Virus record (IMG/VR): IMGVR_UViG_2565956711_000001
Direction: 5' to 3' (one strand)
DNA length: 12,715 bases
Source: a virus
Lineage: Monodnaviria > Loebvirae > Hofneiviricota > Faserviricetes > Tubulavirales > Inoviridae
Shown: positions 414 to 12,465 of the stretch, piece by piece
Position numbering within the stretch: position 1 is the stretch's first letter
Layout of the letters: each line of letters starts with the position of its first letter
Position numbers and translations under genes: made by a program
Notes under the pieces: model-generated
Told to the model about the DNA's origin: nothing
What the model saw: the letters and a program-made list of their open reading frames with translations, nothing else
The model's database searches: none

Positions 414-608
414 CTAATACTGCTCAAATTTTAAAGGTTGCATCTCGCGCTGGCTGGGATTATATTTATTAAGGACTAGCATATAGTGGTGTACGCTGTT
501 ATCCTCTTTGTAATGAGGCTTATCAGTGTGTGAAGGGAGAGGGCGGACTCTGCTTTGCCCTCTCTCTTTCATGGACTTATTTAACTTTAAATGTTTTTTA
601 AAAGTCAT
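414..608 (-). CDS. Small basic hypothetical protein (64 aa), possibly translationally coupled to the upstream gene
   Basis: Its ATG (606-608) overlaps the TGA (605-607) of the 186-aa ORF in an ATGA arrangement. AT-rich; no recognisable motif; could be spurious. Confidence 0.3.
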   Translation of the reverse strand: MTFKKHLKLNKSMKERGQSRVRPLPSHTDKPHYKEDNSVHHYMLVLNKYNPSQREMQPLKFEQY

Positions 609-1165
609 TGCCTTATTGCAATGGTTTTATTAAAAATCCCAATCAATGTGTTTATTTTTTCATTTATCTTAATTTGCTTTTTCTCTTGCTCGAGAGAAAG
701 TTTTCTGAATTCATTTTCCCTGCTCGGCACGGCAATTATCAACTCTTCATAAATCTCCTTTGCTCCTGATACTTTTTCCAACTCGCTGCTGTATTTTTCG
801 ATAAGAGTTCTTATTTGAATATTTACATTTCTGTATTCATGACTGGTAGCACTTAAAACAAGTTGACTGGAATTTTTTTTGGGTGCCTCAATTAACTCTA
901 CGCTTTTCTTTACGACATTGAATTCAGATGTGACTGAGTATACATATTGATACGCGCCTGATTTTCTGACTTTACTCAATAATCCTTTTCTAACTAAACA
1001 CTGAATTTGGTTATAAGCAAAAGCTTTTGCCTTAAAATAACTTTTCGGAAGTGAAAATCGCTCGATAAGAATTTGAGCCACATCGTTACTGGTGAAGTTA
1101 TCTTTAGCAATATAGATTATTGCGGAAAATATGTACGACTCAGCGTTGGATACTCGACTATTCAT
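605..1165 (-). CDS. Hypothetical protein (186 aa), possible winged-helix N-terminal region plus lysine/glutamate-rich C-terminal coiled coil
   Basis: Uninterrupted 186-codon ORF with ATG at 1163-1165, in a markedly AT-rich stretch compared with its flanks. The C-terminus (EKKQIKINEKINTLIGIF) looks coiled-coil. No clear Shine-Dalgarno sequence. Confidence 0.5.
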   Translation of the reverse strand: MNSRVSNAESYIFSAIIYIAKDNFTSNDVAQILIERFSLPKSYFKAKAFAYNQIQCLVRKGLLSKVRKSGAYQYVYSVTSEFNVVKKSVELIEAPKKNSSQLVLSATSHEYRNVNIQIRTLIEKYSSELEKVSGAKEIYEELIIAVPSRENEFRKLSLEQEKKQIKINEKINTLIGIFNKTIAIRQ

Positions 1166-1186: not shown

Positions 1187-1236
1187 ACTTAGGATTGCTA
1201 AGTATACAACAATGGCAGATACTTAGACAATCTAAG
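1187..1236. promoter_or_regulatory. Divergent promoter region with two palindromic candidate operators (ACTTAG-N5-CTAAGT at 1187..1203; CTTAGA-N3-TCTAAG at 1222..1236)
   Basis: Both inverted repeats were read directly from the sequence. They lie between the divergent starts at 1165 (minus) and 1263 (plus). Confidence 0.4.
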
Positions 1237-1262: not shown

Positions 1263-1595
1263 GTGTCTGAAAAAAATCCGATACCAGAAAGACTTAAGGA
1301 AGCGAGAAGCAGGGCGGGTTTATCACAGCGCTCATTGGGCCTCCTTGTTGGGTTTGATCCCGCTTCGGCTAGCAGTCGTATGAATCATTATGAGAAAGGG
1401 CGCCATGTCCCCGATATTGATACGCTTCGACGGATGGCGGCAGAGTTAAACGTGCCGTTGAACTACTTTTTTTGTGATGATCAGACCACAGCTGAACTTG
1501 CATTACTCATATCCCGGATGACAGAGGAAGAGCGAAGTAATCTTATCGAAGCACTCAAAAGGCATCCAGGCGAAAAGCATGCTGACAAAAAATGA
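1263..1595 (+). CDS. XRE-family (Cro/CI-type) helix-turn-helix transcriptional regulator (110 aa)
   Basis: The translation contains LKEARSRAGLSQRSLGLLVGF...MAAELNVPLNYFF, a typical HTH_XRE fold signature. The only in-frame start is GTG at 1263, preceded by a weak purine-rich stretch; TGA at 1593-1595. GC content is higher than in the neighbouring AT-rich genes. Confidence 0.7.
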   Translation: MSEKNPIPERLKEARSRAGLSQRSLGLLVGFDPASASSRMNHYEKGRHVPDIDTLRRMAAELNVPLNYFFCDDQTTAELALLISRMTEEERSNLIEALKRHPGEKHADKK

Positions 1596-1799: not shown

Positions 1800-2234
1800 T
1801 TATGACGACTTATGTAGTTCCCGAATCATATGGTTGGCCAACAGGCTTTCCACCGGTATAACCGAATTGATTTTTACCGCTTTGACAATTTCTATCAACG
1901 AAAGGGTATTTTGCGCTAATTGGTCTCGCAATTCACTTACTTCAGCCTGCAACTGCTGGTTTCTGGCCAGTAAAGCCTGACGGGTTTTGCGGTTGACGTA
2001 TTGCTGTTTTTCTTTTGGGCGTAGATTCAATGGGCCAAGTTGCTGGTCAACATAGGCAGCAATTAGGCGTTTACGCTCTAGGCTGCTCAGCGTACTTAAA
2101 CCACCGTTAACGATACCTTTTGCCTTGAGCCTAATATGCAGGGCCTTGGCGGAAATAGGGGACTTGTCAAAGCCTTCAACCAGCATCAGTTGTAATTCGT
2201 GCTCAATCAGTGTGTTCAGTTCCTTGCCGCGCAT
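1800..2234 (-). CDS. Small coiled-coil protein, fourth gene of the tri-recombinase operon (GinD-like or TnpC-like accessory protein)
   Basis: Its ATG at 2232-2234 overlaps the TGA (2234-2236) of the upstream 788-aa recombinase in an ATGA arrangement. The ORF track starts one codon earlier at TTG 2237. Coiled-coil segment NQQLQAEVSELRDQLAQN. No catalytic motif recognised. Confidence 0.6.
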   Translation of the reverse strand: MRGKELNTLIEHELQLMLVEGFDKSPISAKALHIRLKAKGIVNGGLSTLSSLERKRLIAAYVDQQLGPLNLRPKEKQQYVNRKTRQALLARNQQLQAEVSELRDQLAQNTLSLIEIVKAVKINSVIPVESLLANHMIRELHKSS

Positions 2235-4600
2235 CAATCATTCTCCTGCATCAATTGTTGGTATTCAAGTGCAAAAAGCTGGGCCAGTGTACGGACTTTG
2301 CCCTCGGTGATTACTCCACCAGACAACACACTCTCAGCAGCAACCAGTTGTTGAGTCTTGGCACGACGATGCCATTGTGCTTGTATTGCCTCGAGTTGCT
2401 GTAACCGTCGTTCGATGTCGGCCAGTCTGGTCTGGTAATCAGGCTGATGTTGAGTAAGTTGGGTCAACTTCGAATGTGCTTGCTGTAAAGCCTGTTTTTT
2501 GGCAATCAGATTTGGTAGCTCATCTATCCGGCCTGTCAGCGTGAAATGTTCACAAAAGGCAGCACTCTGGCATTTCAGTCGATAAGGACATCCCCAGAGG
2601 TTAACTTCCCGCATACAGGAGCCAAATTTCAGCGGATACAGCACGGCATGTCTTGCCACCATGTCAGAGGCTTGCTCTGGTCCTTCTGCGTCGCGGATTT
2701 CTTCAAAGGCGGCAGCAACATCTTCAAAGAGGCCGTTAGCAAATGACGCCTCGACAAACCTGGCTACATCATCCCGATCGTCAAAAGTATGCAGGTTGGC
2801 TTTGATGGTATTGTCCAAAGTCATGTGTTCCGTGACCGCCAGTTGGCCGGTCCGTTTGACGATATCCAGTGGCGTAGCAATGGAGGACGAAGAGGGCGAG
2901 ACAGTTAGTGCTGTCGAAATCGGCTGCAAGGGCACCAACGAGGCGGCTTTTCGCCGTTCTGCAAGCGCCAGATGTTGATAATGCTGATTCTGCGTGATGT
3001 CCACTCGACCCATCAACATTGCCTGTAAGTGGTCAGAGATATCCGCAATAGCAAGAAAGGTATTGATGTTGTGCCGGGGAATGTGGGTACGCATCCGCGT
3101 CGAGGTGCCATCCTCCTCCAGTAATTGATATTTGCTGAATACTGATCCATCAGGCTCAACGTTGCCTAAGAATTTATTCATAAGTGTGTTAGTGAAGGGT
3201 ATCGGTGTAGCCAGCAAAGCCAGTGTGCGCTTTAATGCCAGCGAACCCTTCTCGTGTAGAAATAGCAGATCCTCGTAGTTAACTTGGTAGCGTTTGCCAT
3301 TTTCCATCCAGGCGTGTGTACAGGGTTCGTTGGCATTCGCCAGACCAAATTCGGTCTTAATGTAATGATTGAGAGCAGTCTTGGAATAATAGATAGATTT
3401 GCTGTTTTTCGGGCCTGGTATTTCTTGAACGGGCAGCACACCTCTTTTGCTAAGGGCTTTGGATGTTTTGTCCCGTTGTCCTGCCCGGCCCCGAAAACTT
3501 GAGGTAGTTTGGGTGATGTACTTCACCACATCGTCCAGTTCGACTCGTTCACCGGGCATGTTGCTGATGGCCTGTGGCAGGTAATCAGCAAAAGATTTTG
3601 CCCGTAGATAGGTAAGATGGCTGCGTATTGGTGCGGTCAACATTTTAACGGTACTGAATATACTCTCGACCAGCGGTACTGCCAGCGGTTCTACCCAATG
3701 CGTTCGCTCCCCAGCACCTTTGACACCAACATAACGGATACCAAGAAAATAATCGGGTAATCCCTTGTCCTGAAATCGTTTGCAGATTGCCGGATCATCA
3801 ATCTGGCGTTTAAACAGGGCATCCTGTCTGAGATTAAACGCTTCAATGGAGCGAAAGCCGGTAATAACCAATAACAACAGGCAATTTAACGCGATTTTCT
3901 CAGCATCACTTTCCACCCGCTGGATTAATGCAACTATGTTCAGAAATCCGCGAATGGTAATCAACGCATCTTCACCATCGGTAGTGGTATCAGACAGCTT
4001 GGCCTGCTGTTTCAGCGCCATGGTTTCCCGGGCTTTGCGGGTCAAGTTGGTTTTGTTGGTATACTTCACATCAGAGTTGTATTGCAGTTTAACCAACGTA
4101 AATGTGAAGTGATTGACCAATTTTTGAAGGCTAACGCACCGCCCTTTATAGTTAGCTGTATTGGGGTCACTAGGAGATGAAACGCTACTGAGAAGATCCA
4201 TCGCTCGTTGAATGACAACTGTGCTCAGGTAAGATGGATGGGTCTGTCCTGTCTCATAAAGCATCGCATGGTACCATCGTTTCAGAATCATCAAAGTTGC
4301 CTTTGCCACCGCTGGCGACATACTCCTATTTCCCTGTCGGTAAACCACTACCAGCATAGCTTTCATGAACTGACTATATTCTTTGTCGATGGGCAGATGT
4401 TCTACAATACCTTTGAATCTGTTCATCTCATCAAAACGTAATGTATTTCTGCCGTTCCCTCGCAACCATCCACTTCCCTGGTTACCACTTACCCAGATAT
4501 GATCATTCCATGTTTGGGCAAAATCAGCAGACAGGTGCTGTTCGAACCATTTTTTTTGCTCTTCAATAAAAGCCTGAAAATGCTCAAAGTGATTTTTCAT
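2234..4600 (-). CDS. Tyrosine site-specific recombinase, large (788 aa), third of three tandem recombinases (GinC-like), with a C-terminal Cys4 and coiled-coil extension
   Basis: Box I-like arginine in VITGFRSIE. Box II-like HIPRHNINTFLA ... LMGRVDITQNQHY gives the R-H-R-Y catalytic pattern. C-terminal cluster CMREVNLWGCPYRLKCQSAAFC followed by a Q/L-rich coiled coil. ATG at 4598-4600 is preceded by AGGTGA; the start overlaps the upstream gene by 17 nt. Confidence 0.8.
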   Translation of the reverse strand: MKNHFEHFQAFIEEQKKWFEQHLSADFAQTWNDHIWVSGNQGSGWLRGNGRNTLRFDEMNRFKGIVEHLPIDKEYSQFMKAMLVVVYRQGNRSMSPAVAKATLMILKRWYHAMLYETGQTHPSYLSTVVIQRAMDLLSSVSSPSDPNTANYKGRCVSLQKLVNHFTFTLVKLQYNSDVKYTNKTNLTRKARETMALKQQAKLSDTTTDGEDALITIRGFLNIVALIQRVESDAEKIALNCLLLLVITGFRSIEAFNLRQDALFKRQIDDPAICKRFQDKGLPDYFLGIRYVGVKGAGERTHWVEPLAVPLVESIFSTVKMLTAPIRSHLTYLRAKSFADYLPQAISNMPGERVELDDVVKYITQTTSSFRGRAGQRDKTSKALSKRGVLPVQEIPGPKNSKSIYYSKTALNHYIKTEFGLANANEPCTHAWMENGKRYQVNYEDLLFLHEKGSLALKRTLALLATPIPFTNTLMNKFLGNVEPDGSVFSKYQLLEEDGTSTRMRTHIPRHNINTFLAIADISDHLQAMLMGRVDITQNQHYQHLALAERRKAASLVPLQPISTALTVSPSSSSIATPLDIVKRTGQLAVTEHMTLDNTIKANLHTFDDRDDVARFVEASFANGLFEDVAAAFEEIRDAEGPEQASDMVARHAVLYPLKFGSCMREVNLWGCPYRLKCQSAAFCEHFTLTGRIDELPNLIAKKQALQQAHSKLTQLTQHQPDYQTRLADIERRLQQLEAIQAQWHRRAKTQQLVAAESVLSGGVITEGKVRTLAQLFALEYQQLMQEND

Positions 4601-7673: not shown

Positions 7674-7701
7674 ATTTAACATAATATACATTATGCGCAC
7701 C
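7674..7701 (-). other. dif: dif chromosome dimer resolution site (XerC/XerD target), exact 28-bp match to the E. coli dif sequence as recalled
   Basis: The plus strand reads ATTTAACATAATATACATTATGCGCACC, the reverse complement of GGTGCGCATAA-TGTATA-TTATGTTAAAT (XerC arm, central region, XerD arm). Confidence 0.85.
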
Positions 7702-7986
7702 AGTGCGCAGATACGCCAGAAATCAGCCTGTAACCATCACCACGGCATTAAACGGTCATCGCTGTTACGTTCTTTCGTCTTCGACCGTCAGCCATCCGTA
7801 TCGCTTCTGAATACGCCGGAATGAAAAACAGGCTTTGCAGTGCCGGGAATTATTATGGCTGACGCCATAATGCTGTTTATGTCCTCGCTTCGCTGCGGGG
7901 CTTCCGGCGCTAAGCGCCTCCCATGCCTGACGGCATAAAAACCGGATATGCCGCCACGTCACCGCATGATACGTCCGTCGCCACCA

Positions 7987-9249
7987 TCACCGCGCGCGCT
8001 CCTCGTGGGAACTCGGTGCGTGCGCGGCGCTGGCGCGCCTGACTTTTTTCGCCTGTAACACGACAAGAATATCCGTCTTGTTCTTCTCGTCAGATGAACT
8101 GGTGAGCCAGCCTTTTGGCAGAAAGCTGAACCCGGTATCGGCGTTTGTGACCTTCGATTCAGCCAGGCCACCCAGCAGAATAATATCCCCGTCAGCCGCT
8201 GATACCTCCGTATTCACCTCGCGCTTAATCAGCGTCGGGCTGTTATTCACGCCCGTATCCGTCTTCGCAAAGCTGGAAAGCTGCTGCTTAATCACAAGGT
8301 CAATATTGTCAGTCCGGATTTGCGGTTTCACGTCGAGGATAACGCCACTAGAGCGATATTCAATCGACTGGATCGGCCTGTTGTCGGCGTAGCTCACCTG
8401 ACCCAGCACCGGAACCTCGTTACCGACTGAAAACGTGGCAGATGCGCCATCCTTCACCCTGAGCCGCGGGGAACTGACGACATGAAAACGACTGTCCGTC
8501 CTGAAAAGCTCATACAGCGCATCAAGAGAGCCTGTATTCACCCGGATAAAGTTATCAAAACCGCCAGACGCGCCAATCTGTATATTCAGCTTGCCGGAAA
8601 GCAGCTTCGCCGCCAGTGCCAGCCCGGAACCGTTACGCTCACTGGTCTGAACCTCAAACACGTAAGCTGCGACAATCACTTCTTCAGAGGCAGTATCAAT
8701 CAGCGGTAAAAGCGTCTGCAACCGCTTAATCTCTGACTTCCGGCCATAATAAACCAGCACATCCCCGGTACGGTTCATAAAGTCCGATGCCGTACCCGCT
8801 ACGGCCGCTTCTGGCGATATCTGCCCGGACGGTAACGAGTTACGCTGACTGTTAAACTGCCCGGTAAACTGTCCGGCCAGAATGTCAGACAGATACGCCA
8901 CGGAACGGAAGCGAGGCCGATAAACAAAGGTCTCCTGCGGCGGCACATACACTTTCGGCGTGAACGGCGCCACGTAGTCAATGCCCTGTTTGTTATAAAT
9001 CGCAATGTTCATATTGCCGAGATAGCGCTTAATAAATGCCCGTTCATCGATATCCGGCGTGATACGGAACGTCACCACCTTATCGGATTTGGCAAGCTCC
9101 GGGTCAAGCATAAACGGCTTATCGAACACCTGAACGTAAATCATGTTCAGCGCCTGCGGCAGCGGAACAGCGTTGAGCTCCAGACTGACGCCCTTCGCCA
9201 TAACCAGCCCCGGAACCAGTAAAAAAAGTAAACCTGTTATCAGCTTCAT
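7987..9249 (-). CDS. Filamentous phage pIV-like outer-membrane secretin (420 aa)
   Basis: N-terminal signal peptide (MKLITGLLFLLVPGLVMA). C-terminal secretin-like segment (VVSSPRLRVKDGASATFSVGNEVPVLG ... GDIILLGGL). Its ATG overlaps the Zot/pI stop in an ATGA arrangement at 9246-9249, and it sits immediately downstream of the pI-like gene as in Ff phages. Confidence 0.8.
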   Translation of the reverse strand: MKLITGLLFLLVPGLVMAKGVSLELNAVPLPQALNMIYVQVFDKPFMLDPELAKSDKVVTFRITPDIDERAFIKRYLGNMNIAIYNKQGIDYVAPFTPKVYVPPQETFVYRPRFRSVAYLSDILAGQFTGQFNSQRNSLPSGQISPEAAVAGTASDFMNRTGDVLVYYGRKSEIKRLQTLLPLIDTASEEVIVAAYVFEVQTSERNGSGLALAAKLLSGKLNIQIGASGGFDNFIRVNTGSLDALYELFRTDSRFHVVSSPRLRVKDGASATFSVGNEVPVLGQVSYADNRPIQSIEYRSSGVILDVKPQIRTDNIDLVIKQQLSSFAKTDTGVNNSPTLIKREVNTEVSAADGDIILLGGLAESKVTNADTGFSFLPKGWLTSSSDEKNKTDILVVLQAKKVRRASAAHAPSSHEERAR

Positions 9250-10280
9250 CGTATCGCCCCTGAATAAACCGTCACCGTTTCGCCGTCGATTTCACCCGTC
9301 ATCATCATGCCGTCAAAGCTGAACTGCGAAGCCGGCTCTATACGCAATCTGCCTGACGTGTCTGCAACAACAACCCATGCCTGACCATCGCGTTTAAGCC
9401 GTCCGGCAAGTCGCCATTTGTCCGACACAACGGGCTTAGCTGGCGCGGCAGGTACAAAAGACGCTGAATTATTTGCGGCGGGTAAATCTTTAGTCTGCTG
9501 TTCAGGCTCTGAATTACCGTTTGACGTGAAAAACCAGAACAGATAAAAAATGGCAATTACCGCCAGAATCAGTAACCCGACAGCTTTAAACCACAACATT
9601 TTAGAACTGAAAATATTCTGACGTTTATCGGTGACAAGTTCCCTTCCCTGCCCGTTCTCATGGGATTTATATAGGGGGAATATCGCCTTGTCATATTTAT
9701 TCTGATAACTGTTCGTCAGATTCGACTTAAACAGTTTGATACCCGTAAATACGTCCACACGGTAGCGGTTATGCAGACCCAGCGCCACATGCTTACTCAT
9801 GCGATACGTTGTTTCCACCCGGTCTTTAATGAATCGCGGAAGGTTGGCAACAGACTGATTCATAACCACTAAATCACAGGTTACGCCCGTTTTTTCATCG
9901 GCAAAATGGCGATGTTCTGCAATGAAAGAGCGATGATTTGCAGGAATCCCTTTATCGTTCTCCCATATGCGCCATGCTTCATCAATACAGATTAAATCCC
10001 CCGGACGGCAGAACGTATCATCCGCAATGCCTGAATCCGTTTTGTAGGGAAAGAAATTATCGTTCTGAACGTCTTCATTCTGAACAAGTAAAATTTCACC
10101 AAGTGATTCCCTGTCTGCCTTTTTAATATCAACGCAGTAATCATAAATACTTTGCGTGGCAAGGCCGTAAATATTACTGACAATGCGACGCCCAGCGATA
10201 CAGGCGGGAATAATGACGCTTGCCACCACTTCGTAAGATTTACCGCTTCCGGGAATGCCCACATACGCAGAAATAGCCAT
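9246..10280 (-). CDS. Zot/pI-family filamentous phage assembly ATPase (344 aa)
   Basis: Walker A motif GIPGSGKS near the N-terminus, Walker B-like LICIDEAW, and a single predicted transmembrane helix (AVGLLILAVIAIFYLFWFF) separating the cytoplasmic and periplasmic parts. This is the architecture of Ff gene I and Zot. Confidence 0.85.
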   Translation of the reverse strand: MAISAYVGIPGSGKSYEVVASVIIPACIAGRRIVSNIYGLATQSIYDYCVDIKKADRESLGEILLVQNEDVQNDNFFPYKTDSGIADDTFCRPGDLICIDEAWRIWENDKGIPANHRSFIAEHRHFADEKTGVTCDLVVMNQSVANLPRFIKDRVETTYRMSKHVALGLHNRYRVDVFTGIKLFKSNLTNSYQNKYDKAIFPLYKSHENGQGRELVTDKRQNIFSSKMLWFKAVGLLILAVIAIFYLFWFFTSNGNSEPEQQTKDLPAANNSASFVPAAPAKPVVSDKWRLAGRLKRDGQAWVVVADTSGRLRIEPASQFSFDGMMMTGEIDGETVTVYSGAIR

Positions 10281-10283
10281 AAA

Positions 10284-10571
10284 TTAACCAATCAAAGGAA
10301 TGCGACGAATAATAAAGCGCGTTAACAATGCTGAAAACATCAGTTTAATCCCTTCCGTGACCATAAACAGATTCACGAAATACCATACGCTATCAGGTAG
10401 TGAGGAAAACAACCCGGCAATATCAACAGATTTTGGCAACAGTGACGCCAGAACCGGAACAAACGCCTGTACGACAAAGTACAGGCCAAAAAACAGAATA
10501 AATTTGACAACCACCGTTCGCAGCACAAAACCCAGCGCCACGTTAAAGGCTGAAACCAGAATACCAAACAT
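10284..10571 (-). CDS. Filamentous phage pVI-like minor coat / membrane protein (95 aa)
   Basis: Small, very hydrophobic protein placed between pIII-like and pI-like genes. Strong Shine-Dalgarno sequence GGAGG about 5 nt upstream of ATG at 10569-10571. Confidence 0.6.
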   Translation of the reverse strand: MFGILVSAFNVALGFVLRTVVVKFILFFGLYFVVQAFVPVLASLLPKSVDIAGLFSSLPDSVWYFVNLFMVTEGIKLMFSALLTRFIIRRIPLIG

Positions 10572-10581
10572 AACGCCTCCG

Positions 10582-12465
10582 TCACGCAGTCAGAATGATA
10601 CGCAGCGAAATAATGCCCCAGATAAGCAGGAATACCGCTTTCAGAAGTGGCCTGATTTTTTCCAGAAGCTCGCAGTGAGAATCAATGGAATATTTATTGT
10701 CCCAGAGTTCGAACGACCATACCGGACACTGAACATCCTTCGATGAAATACTCAGGTTTTTAATGTCCGGCATTAATTCTGTAATTGGCTTGAGAATTTC
10801 CTCACCTGTAGGCGGTTTTTCAAGTTCCGGCGATTTAATGCCGGGGTCTTCGCCTAAATCAACAGAAGTATCGGTATCTGTGCCTGTACCAGGGTGTACA
10901 CCTGTATCCGTTCCCGCACCGGGTCTGGCATTAACCCACGACTGAGGAACGACAACCGGACTATAAAGCAAGCCCTTATCAAGTTTTACGCCAACAGCAT
11001 TAGCCGCAGCCGTCAGTTCAGCCGCCGTAAAAGGTTTATCAAGCGGTATCCCCTGATATCCTTCCTGAACAACAGTCTGACCTGCAAGGCCATTAATAAG
11101 ATTAACCAGCGCAGCCGGGTTTAACTGTTCCTCCGGCTTGAAATCTATATTATCAATAACCTCGCCATTAATTACCTGAGGTAAATTTGATGTATCAAAT
11201 TCTGTATTAAAAAATATCTGGTCTTTAACATCCTGAACATCATTCGTCGTTTTATACACGGCCTTCTCAGGGTGGCAAATACTTTTCCACTGCGTTTTGG
11301 GATTATCAGCCGTACTGCCCGGCGCAGGTACTTTCTCGCTTTTACATAAATCCCATGAGTTTTCAAGCGTAACCGTTGTTGTTCCAACAGATAAAACCAC
11401 AGTTACAATCGATGAATATCCACCAAAATAAGGATTCGGCTTTTCATACTGAAAGTCTTTAACGGAAACCGAATAAACCTTAAAATTTCTTGGCATCCTG
11501 ATATGTAAGTTATTGTCGTCAGACGCCTCATGATAAGTCACATTGGAATGAGAATAACCATTAATCGACTTATAAAGCGCAATCATTACCGGATTATCAC
11601 TGACAAGTACAGCATCGCCCTTTGCATCCCTGATATCAGTCGAATAAGGATATTTAGTACCCTTAACTGACACACGATATACATCATTCGGTAATGGCTG
11701 GCTTATCGGCGGTGGTGCATCAATATTGTAATAGGTTGGCGCAATCTGAACAGGTTTAACCTGATGATTATAAGGGCTTATCGAGTCCTGAATATTCTTC
11801 GCAGAAAAGCCAGTAGCATCAGAGGGCAAATAAACAGCAACAGGGCTTTTAGGTGAAGGTGCAACAGAAGAAGTAACAGTAGCGCCATTGGACAAATTAA
11901 GTAAATAAGTTCCATCATCCTGTTTTATTCCACTTGTAATATATTCAACAGCTTTTGCGCCCTGCTTTAAAGCAAGGTCAGCAACGGAAATAACACCCGC
12001 AGCCTGCCCCAGCAATCCCCATGTTGTCTGTCCGGCAGCCATCATATTACTGCCAAAACTTGAAATACCCGTGGATATCGAATCGTCAATTGTATGCTTC
12101 GCAAGGCCATAAGCAGCCGCGAAAACTGACGTTCCGGTGCAAAGCTGAGGATTACCCACTTTCTCGCCACACATGCGGATTGAATCAAAAACGTCAGGAC
12201 GTTCGCGTATAACCTCCGCAGCGACAGCGATACCCGCGCCCATACCGAGAGAACTGGCACCCGTTGCGAATACACGCCCCGCAGATTGAGAAACAACCTG
12301 AGCTTCACGGGTTTCAACCATTTGCTGAATTACACGTCCAAATCCGTCTGCTGTTACTGCATCAGCATGTACACCGGATGAAACCAGTAAAGACAATATA
12401 GTAATACCTAACTTTCCAGACCCTGAATGACCGCCCAGGCGCATAAAAGCCCCCATAAAAAACAC
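10582..12465 (-). CDS. Filamentous phage pIII-like adsorption / minor coat protein (627 aa by ORF track; true start probably the ATG at 12442-12444)
   Basis: Signal peptide (MRLGGHSGSGKLGITILSLLVSSGVHA), a G/T/D/P-rich linker (PGAGTDTGVHPGTGTDTDTSVDLGEDPG) and a C-terminal hydrophobic anchor (LLKAVFLLIWGIISLRIILTA). Sits between pVIII and pVI. The ORF track start at 12465 is GTG; the ATG at 12442-12444 is preceded by a GGGGG purine run. Confidence 0.65.
   Translation of the reverse strand: MFFMGAFMRLGGHSGSGKLGITILSLLVSSGVHADAVTADGFGRVIQQMVETREAQVVSQSAGRVFATGASSLGMGAGIAVAAEVIRERPDVFDSIRMCGEKVGNPQLCTGTSVFAAAYGLAKHTIDDSISTGISSFGSNMMAAGQTTWGLLGQAAGVISVADLALKQGAKAVEYITSGIKQDDGTYLLNLSNGATVTSSVAPSPKSPVAVYLPSDATGFSAKNIQDSISPYNHQVKPVQIAPTYYNIDAPPPISQPLPNDVYRVSVKGTKYPYSTDIRDAKGDAVLVSDNPVMIALYKSINGYSHSNVTYHEASDDNNLHIRMPRNFKVYSVSVKDFQYEKPNPYFGGYSSIVTVVLSVGTTTVTLENSWDLCKSEKVPAPGSTADNPKTQWKSICHPEKAVYKTTNDVQDVKDQIFFNTEFDTSNLPQVINGEVIDNIDFKPEEQLNPAALVNLINGLAGQTVVQEGYQGIPLDKPFTAAELTAAANAVGVKLDKGLLYSPVVVPQSWVNARPGAGTDTGVHPGTGTDTDTSVDLGEDPGIKSPELEKPPTGEEILKPITELMPDIKNLSISSKDVQCPVWSFELWDNKYSIDSHCELLEKIRPLLKAVFLLIWGIISLRIILTA

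Follow-up and report, generated by a model that had tools for sequence, protein, structure and literature searches.

A conserved palindrome pair as a probable controller-type operator of a C.Csp231I-like regulator encoded divergently from a VspR-family gene

The two palindromes that separate a divergent gene pair in the window (the whole stretch of DNA analysed, 12,715 nucleotides, which is Escherichia coli DNA) probably form a controller-type operator pair (a "C-box") of the 110-aa XRE-type regulator encoded next to them, through which this regulator would repress the divergent VspR-like gene and control its own expression. The operator reading is well supported by homology and comparison. 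Sequence analysis establishes that the sites are present and conserved, to which family the regulator belongs, and that half-site and contact residue co-vary, and we infer that it is the regulator itself that binds; among the candidate binders considered, support was found for this one. The elements concerned are the following (positions are those of the window):

605 to 1165, minus strand: 186-aa VspR-family gene, predicted winged helix in the N-terminal and helical C-terminal part, divergent from the regulator gene
1188 to 1202: site 1, CTTAG-GATTG-CTAAG, adjoining the VspR-like gene and distal from the regulator gene
1203 to 1221: inter-site stretch of 19 bp
1222 to 1236: site 2, CTTAG-ACAAT-CTAAG, regulator-gene-proximal
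1263 to 1595, plus strand: 110-aa XRE-type regulator gene, GTG start, C.Csp231I/controller-protein class, proposed binder of both sites

The initial annotation had described the palindromes as two inverted repeats with a common half-site (ACTTAG-GATTG-CTAAGT at 1187–1203 and CTTAGA-CAA-TCTAAG at 1222–1236), centred about 34 bp apart and located between the divergent starts. Re-reading of the sequence (1184–1237, ...TTA-ACTTAG-GATTG-CTAAGT-ATACAACAATGGCAGAT-ACTTAG-ACAAT-CTAAGC...) bears this out: both copies fit CTTAG-N5-CTAAG, the first being centred on 1195 and the second, 34 bp further on, on 1229. Both fall within the 97 bp that separate the two divergent start codons, an ATG at 1165 (minus strand) for the 186-aa protein and a GTG at 1263 (plus strand) for the regulator, and the site pair ends 26 bp upstream of this GTG. 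Site 1 together with the flanking A1187 and T1203 makes a 17-bp palindrome. The 6+5+6 and 6+3+6 units proposed in that annotation, on the other hand, had to be revised, since relatives conserve 5+5+5 instead and A1187 is a G in some strains. [quoted passage not shown]

Such a pair is not expected by chance. The exact pattern CTTAG-N5-CTAAG occurs exactly twice in the 12.7-kb window (1188–1202 and 1222–1236) against an expectation of 0.018, and none of 2000 shuffled sequences contained two copies. No third copy with up to one mismatch was found in the window (0.27 matches expected). The pentamer CTTAG alone is not enriched across the window (12 observed versus 19 expected), so that the special feature is the palindromic arrangement. 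A search for the half-site arrangement elsewhere in the island, which the initial annotation had suggested, likewise returned no further site with up to one mismatch, neither in the window nor in 29 kb of an identical island, as would be expected of the operator pair of a local regulator. A candidate third site at 380–394, with two mismatches, was rejected, because three sites with up to two mismatches are within chance (6 expected).

The 110-aa product matches the Pfam models HTH_19/HTH_3 and aligns with C.Csp231I (phmmer versus PDB, entry 3LFP, E=3.2e-22, residues 9–94 on 4–89), the two proteins being ∼50% identical over 86 residues, recognition helix and C-terminal helices included. The C.Csp231I structures are PDB entries 3LFP, 4JCX and 4JCY. 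The PADLOC model Control_protein PDLC03667 is matched end to end (E=1.2e-25, positions 2–93 of 101). Membership in a type II toxin–antitoxin module as an Xre antitoxin of the MbcA/ParS class was considered and rejected: antitoxins of that class are co-transcribed with a RES-domain toxin gene, whereas here there is no toxin-like gene and the partner is divergent and of winged-helix type. The binding of C.Csp231I to its operator is experimentally established, with crystal structures as well as gel-shift, footprint and reporter data (PMC3115060, PMC4321490, PMC4824078, PMC9638921). The operator is composed of two CTAAG-N5-CTTAG palindromes 18 bp apart, whose bases are touched by Ser32, Gln37 and His43 (PMC3115060, PMC4321490, PMC4824078), and the length of the inter-site spacer, but not its sequence, is critical (PMC4321490).

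The arrangement in the window is closely comparable. As in C.Csp231I and C.EcoO109I (the "motif 8" C-boxes of Sorokin), two 15-bp 5+5+5 palindromes lie upstream of the regulator's own gene and are separated by a long gap (18 bp for C.Csp231I, 25 bp for C.EcoO109I and 19 bp in the window); for C.Csp231I, too, an additional outer A/T is reported at three half-sites. The equivalents of the base-contacting Ser32/Gln37/His43 are Ser37/His42/His48, the Ser and His contacts thus being common to both proteins. In contrast, Gln37 is replaced by His, and the half-site is CTTAG rather than CTAAG, i.e. with the middle base pair reversed. The palindrome spacers are also different (GATTG/ACAAT in the window, A-tracts in C.Csp231I). 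Controller genes of this class are located immediately upstream of the restriction endonuclease gene that they control, whereas the partner of the window regulator is a divergent VspR-family gene on a GInt-like island; a domain search of the genes around it in the window detected neither an endonuclease nor a methylase domain, and the downstream gene (1800–2237, minus strand) is convergent. The second-best structural relative by sequence, BswR of Pseudomonas aeruginosa (PA2780, PDB 4O8B, E=4e-21), shares the fold class of C.Csp231I (PMC3985676) and, like the window regulator, lies outside any restriction-modification system. Unlike the window regulator, BswR has a Gln at the contact position and a footprint at rsmZ on an unrelated GC-rich palindrome (PMC3985676), and its neighbours differ (PA2779 divergent, PA2781 in operon).

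The difference in the half-site is accompanied, across relatives, by the difference at the contact position. A metagenome scan with the pattern CTWAG-N5-CTWAGTATACA, which permits all four T/A combinations, was pooled with the earlier loci to give 77 loci with a downstream regulator gene, representing 52 distinct 74-nt regions. His occupies the recognition-helix position of C.Csp231I Gln37 in 49 of these 52 regions, all of them with CTTAG..CTAAG, and Gln in the other three (L033, L120 and L136), where all four half-sites are of the CTAAG..CTTAG type and the 34-bp spacing is kept; not a single discordant pairing of residue and half-site was found in the 52 distinct regions. For example, at the Vibrio plasmid locus L033, where the partner gene is annotated as vspR, the regulator carries Gln; one site reads CTAAG-GATTG-CTTAG and the other, again at the 34-bp distance, CTAAG-AAAAT-CTTAG, and the intergenic region is otherwise nearly identical to that of a His-type Vibrio locus. 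A Gln-type homologue from Xanthomonas (L037) follows the same rule with CTAAG-AATAT-CTTAG. Two distant plasmid homologues with His (L034 and L035) have sites of the TTTAG/TTAAG..CTAAA type, which fit the His trend as weaker evidence. The three VspR-linked Gln-type regulators form one clade (84–85% identical among themselves), so the co-variation rests on few independent events. One further locus (L100), with two Csp231I-type sites 33 bp apart, was left out as the regulator gene is missing downstream. Taken with the C.Csp231I homology and the same operator layout, the co-variation makes it very probable that the palindromes are, as originally suggested, operators of the dimeric XRE regulator.

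The conservation of the sites was assessed in 20 orthologous loci, 19 of which had the intergenic region on the contig. When six more loci of E. coli and nine of other genera are compared, two blocks (1188–1212 and 1218–1238) are invariant, while 1213–1217 and the outer flanks vary, and the invariance persists where the 186-aa protein is only 53–58% identical (Enterobacter ludwigii, Scandinavium and metagenomes). Site 1 is unchanged in all orthologous loci of E. coli, Enterobacter, Citrobacter, Klebsiella and Scandinavium, with at most one change in distant pairs, and the spacing of the sites is constant in relatives (34 bp centre to centre). Absence of the palindromes from orthologous loci keeping both genes had been named in advance as an argument against the operator reading; they are kept in every orthologous locus examined. 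Regulators only 60–66% identical (from E. coli, Serratia, V. parahaemolyticus and Enterobacter), which were found via the protein alone, without the site pattern, also have both CTTAG..CTAAG sites at the same spacing together with His. The scan of the genome collection itself returned close relatives only (74–87% identical), the distant loci being taken individually. The regulator is far better conserved than its 186-aa partner, and its segment GFDPASASSRMNHYEKGRHVPDIDTL is invariant.

Site 2, which was absent from the search pattern, provided a separate view of the pair. A perfect core of the same type is present at exactly +34 in 27 of the 37 distinct metagenome regions; of the remaining regions, two have one mismatch, and in eight the site has at least two mismatches or is absent. 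Site 2 has been lost in some marine/environmental lineages (L050, L057, L093, L115, L147, L157, L059 and L113), where it is degenerate (ACTAG-ACAAT-CATTT) or replaced, with site 1 and the regulator gene retained; no VspR-like gene was found upstream of the regulator in L059 and L113. The site pair is therefore not obligatory. A metagenome contig (L138, reverse strand, ∼7700–9330) carries two operator-plus-regulator modules ∼1.5 kb apart.

The invariant blocks also contain promoter-like sequences, and the following two candidates were considered:

1201 to 1230, minus strand: promoter-like sequence of the VspR-like gene, -35 TTGTCT (1230–1225), 18-nt spacer, -10 TATACT (1206–1201)
1203 to 1231, plus strand: candidate promoter of the regulator gene, -35 TATACA (1203–1208), 17-nt spacer, -10 GACAAT (1226–1231)

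The first matches the consensus at 9 of 12 positions, in a consensus scan that gave two hits versus 3.1 expected, i.e. no better than chance; both of its hexamers are conserved in distant loci. It places the predicted transcription start of the VspR-like gene at ∼1194, with site 2 covering the -35 and site 1 the start region. The second was read by eye (8 of 12 matches, under the scan threshold) and would put site 1 near -43 and site 2 near -9, over the -10. A GAnnnT hexamer 17 nt after TATACA is retained in the loci without site 2 (the L050 type, L059 and L113). In C.Csp231I the -35 lies in the proximal operator (PMC4824078); a regulator promoter drawn by this analogy was dropped in favour of TATACA-17-GACAAT, as no conserved -10 accompanies it here. 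Both the promoter positions and the direction of regulation are putative.

Could the conservation reflect nothing but two overlapping divergent promoters, the palindromy being incidental and no repressor involved? The invariant GTATAC (1202–1207, reaching into the inter-site stretch) and AGACAAT do coincide with predicted -10/-35 hexamers of both strands, and the palindrome spacers are conserved as well, which a dimer reading the half-sites alone would not need. However, none of the predicted hexamers includes the outer half-sites (1188–1192 and 1232–1236), which are nevertheless invariant, and the hexamers stay unchanged where the Gln-type clade has exchanged T and A in concert at all four half-sites. 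Nor would chance be expected to produce two exact 15-bp palindromes that share a pattern. We regard an explanation by promoters alone as very improbable.

In the operator reading that we favour, each 15-bp site would take one regulator dimer, so that, as with C.Csp231I, the full region would hold two of them, centred 34 bp from each other, and each recognition helix would read a CTTAG half-site, the replacement of Gln by His pairing with the reversed middle base pair. As the sites overlap the conserved promoter-like sequence of the VspR-like gene, the two dimers would be expected to repress it: with site 2 (the -35) and site 1 (the start region) occupied, the VspR-like gene would be switched off. 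Location of site 2 over the candidate -10 of the regulator promoter would provide negative autoregulation. In C.Csp231I, binding to the distal site leads to activation and binding to the proximal site to repression (PMC3115060, PMC4321490, PMC4824078), and an SQE patch of C proteins contacts region 4 of sigma-70, activating from the distal site (PMC4824078). The corresponding residues of the window regulator are Ser21-Gln22-Arg23, and its VspR-linked relatives have SQK, TQK or SQR. Since the acidic residue of SQE is Arg here and Arg or Lys in all VspR-linked regulators, a plain repressor would be expected rather than an activator/repressor switch.

The translation start of the regulator gene is unusual in its own right. 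The in-frame start is GTG in the window; related loci nearly always use GTG or TTG as well, only two having ATG, and a +1-frame ATG lies 8–14 nt upstream of it (1249 and 1255 in the window); C.Csp231I differs in having a mapped leaderless ATG. A ribosome-binding sequence of the AGG type (GAGG, 1242–1245) is spaced for the out-of-frame ATG and not for the GTG, and the out-of-frame reading frame extends 21–44 codons into the regulator gene. Such an arrangement suggests that competition between start codons, or an overlapping frame that begins upstream, keeps regulator levels low. A programmed frameshift at the A7 run (1270–1276) was rejected, as the run is not conserved in relatives. In E. coli PSS-08-2 (L003, 3700–3790) the run is A6, which shifts the frame so that the annotated regulator starts later; IS1 copies border the module in this strain, where the recombinase genes are missing.

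The divergent 186-aa gene product is, judging by profile comparison and a structure model, a winged-helix DNA-binding protein of the VspR family. Direct searches of the 186-aa protein against local Pfam (without the VspR models), NCBIfam, PHROGs and PADLOC returned nothing useful, and those against PDB sequences only noise. A 99%-identical protein (P0001), on the other hand, carries the precomputed Pfam domain VspR_N (PF27213), and the partners of related regulators carry VspR_N and VspR_C (PF27213/PF27192); a profile-profile alignment (hhalign) of the window family with these Pfam-positive proteins extended over 167 columns (95.1% probability, E=3.3e-8). The AlphaFold model predicts helices 8–19, 26–35 and 43–59 and strands 63–68 and 71–76 (pLDDT ∼80–89, about 85 over residues 8–88), followed by a helical, poorly defined C-terminal half, and the top Foldseek matches, all weak (E 5e-3 or worse), are winged-helix proteins of the PadR, MecI/BlaI, MarR and F-93 types. 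The partnership is a constant one, the divergent upstream frames being homologous to the 186-aa protein in 50 of 51 non-redundant cases.

As the 186-aa protein itself belongs to a DNA-binding class, a point that, like the controller-protein family of the regulator, was missed in the initial annotation, it is a rival candidate for the sites: the palindromes could be operators of a VspR-family dimer, instead of or alongside the XRE regulator, in the latter case as shared sites of a true CI/Cro-like switch. In a bistable switch of the CI/Cro type, two mutually repressing regulators use the same operators with opposite preference; the initial annotation had envisaged a bistable switch, for which, at this locus, support was found for one of the two binders that it would need. 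The window resembles phage lambda in having palindromic operators for dimeric HTH proteins between divergent promoters and, if the predicted promoter is right, in the distal site near -43 and the proximal site over the core promoter; it differs in having two sites 34 bp apart and no lysis/lysogeny context, whereas lambda has three adjacent operators. The predicted recognition region (wing and helix) is invariant in the 186-aa family, both sites overlap the promoter-like sequence of the VspR-like gene itself, as autoregulation would predict, and the V. cholerae VspR is described (PMC10653837, citing Davies 2012) as a repressor associating with DNA of its own island. On the other hand, it is the XRE regulator that is a homologue of a protein whose solved operator nearly matches the sites in sequence and layout (PMC4321490), and the half-site variant follows a residue of the XRE-type protein. 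Moreover, sites of the same type occur with C.Csp231I and Xanthomonas L037, where no VspR gene is nearby (PMC4824078), and no VspR-like gene was found upstream of the retained site 1 and regulator gene in L059 and L113. Binding by the VspR-like protein is possible, less likely than binding by the XRE regulator, and an account that gives the VspR-like dimer a part in reading the palindromes seems to us improbable.

The pair is also found in Vibrio, where the VspR family has been studied. VspR represses the CBASS genes of the V. cholerae island VSP-I (PMC10653837, PMC9674212), and an HTH regulator adjoining VspR (VC0177), VC0176, is required for full colonisation (PMC4829181, PMC12409362). Two Vibrio loci (L029 and L033) have the same divergent VspR/XRE-type pair and the two sites as in the window, and, by analogy, VC0176 may be linked to the window regulator and its sites; a homologue search with a VspR-family profile did not list the V. 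cholerae protein. The settings differ: VspR of V. cholerae lies beside the CBASS operon, whereas the VspR-like gene of the window precedes another small HTH gene, with a different cargo (Gabija in strain EC09). At three loci with more distant pairs (L025 1950–3901, L027 1950–3901 and L033 480–2383) the VspR-like gene overlaps a downstream gene for a 462-aa ResIII/DEAD-box helicase, weakly similar to PbeA and to helicase domains of restriction enzymes, and the pair seems to head a defence-like operon there.

A 1.15-kb module from this locus was found in 267 of the 5426 complete genomes searched (80–100% identity). Four minus-strand genes (145, 788, 521 and 464 aa) are located to the right of the regulator gene; the 521-aa and 464-aa products match Phage_integrase (tyrosine recombinase), and the 788-aa and 145-aa products have no such hit. 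GInt islands are defined by a ginABCD operon encoding two catalytic tyrosine recombinases, a large recombinase-like protein in which no catalytic domain is recognisable, and a small protein, with cargo beginning immediately after the fourth gene (PMC5385486, PMC10214605). Gene order and sizes in the window fit ginABCD, and the XRE/VspR pair begins 205 bp after the fourth gene; by these two features the recombinase operon is GInt-like. Directly past it (7987–12465) are filamentous-phage genes (a secretin, a Zot-like assembly ATPase and a 627-aa protein); at that position the otherwise identical island of E. coli EC09 has hipBA, a Shedu gene and a transposase gene of the ISNCY type, and among its left cargo are a NACHT gene and genes for a Gabija-like nuclease and helicase. 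In other strains the module stands beside recombinase genes with different cargo.

Several further features of the neighbourhood were observed. A 98-aa HipB-like HTH gene occupies 1–297 on the minus strand, and upstream of it (341–394) is a perfect palindrome, CTTAC-AAGGT-GTAAG at 380–394, with a near-repeat of GTAAGGTGT ∼25 bp away; this palindrome is also present in L001 and may be the operator of the HipB-like protein as a third regulator. The small fourth gene of the recombinase operon is faced by the regulator gene in the window, L019 and L021, and by the VspR-like side of the block in L017 and L023. The island of L017 may be a minimal one, with the block of 98-aa HTH, VspR-like and regulator genes as its sole cargo, since its regulator gene directly adjoins ordinary genes of sugar metabolism. 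The end of the regulator gene in the window is overlapped by a remnant (1579–1773) of a 64-aa gene of the Xre_MbcA_ParS_C (DUF2384-like) type, which is intact in L005, L021 and L023; in the window a TGG has become TGA (1651–1653) and the 3′ end is replaced. No RES-type toxin gene was found near this remnant.

The proximity of recombinase genes brings in another reading of the palindromes, as RNA or DNA hairpins (leader stem-loops, cruciforms or recombination sites of the island recombinases). Both strands fold somewhat better than shuffled sequences (z = -2.0 and -3.2), the four-gene recombinase operon adjoins the locus, and the half-site swap is compensatory for pairing; since it also preserves the hairpin, the swap alone cannot separate a protein site from a nucleic-acid structure. 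However, the stems amount to merely 5–6 A/T-rich pairs, no transcript holds a whole palindrome with the predicted starts, and no Rfam family is matched. The same sites are present in L025, L029 and L033, where no recombinase operon is nearby, and the block is found in either orientation relative to the recombinase genes. A role as hairpins or recombination sites appears highly unlikely to us.

Returning to the operator pair of the controller-like regulator, a broader and rather doubtful extension is that this regulator and the VspR-family protein make up a portable two-repressor "establishment" module, travelling with defence or island cargo, with the sites as the target of VC0176. The VspR-like promoter would fire first in a naive cell after transfer, and the controller-like protein would accumulate later and shut this promoter via both sites, which could result in a timed release or silencing of the cargo. 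Such a scheme would amount to the logic of restriction-modification controllers reused outside restriction-modification, its carriers being GInt islands in enterobacteria, helicase operons and, in Vibrio cholerae, VSP-I with CBASS.

The kind of mechanism is already known; what is new is a C-box with an altered half-site, without restriction-modification genes and with a VspR-family partner. If correct, the operator reading would specify an operator, and the protein that binds it, for a regulator pair with a wide distribution among the defence and mobile islands of gammaproteobacteria (52 distinct versions found), a pair that includes the family of VspR, the cholera CBASS repressor, whose neighbour VC0176 has a colonisation phenotype. 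It would also offer a natural change of recognition by one residue and one base pair (Gln/CTAAG versus His/CTTAG) on a scaffold with crystal structures, and it would extend controller-type regulation beyond restriction-modification to a GInt-like island.
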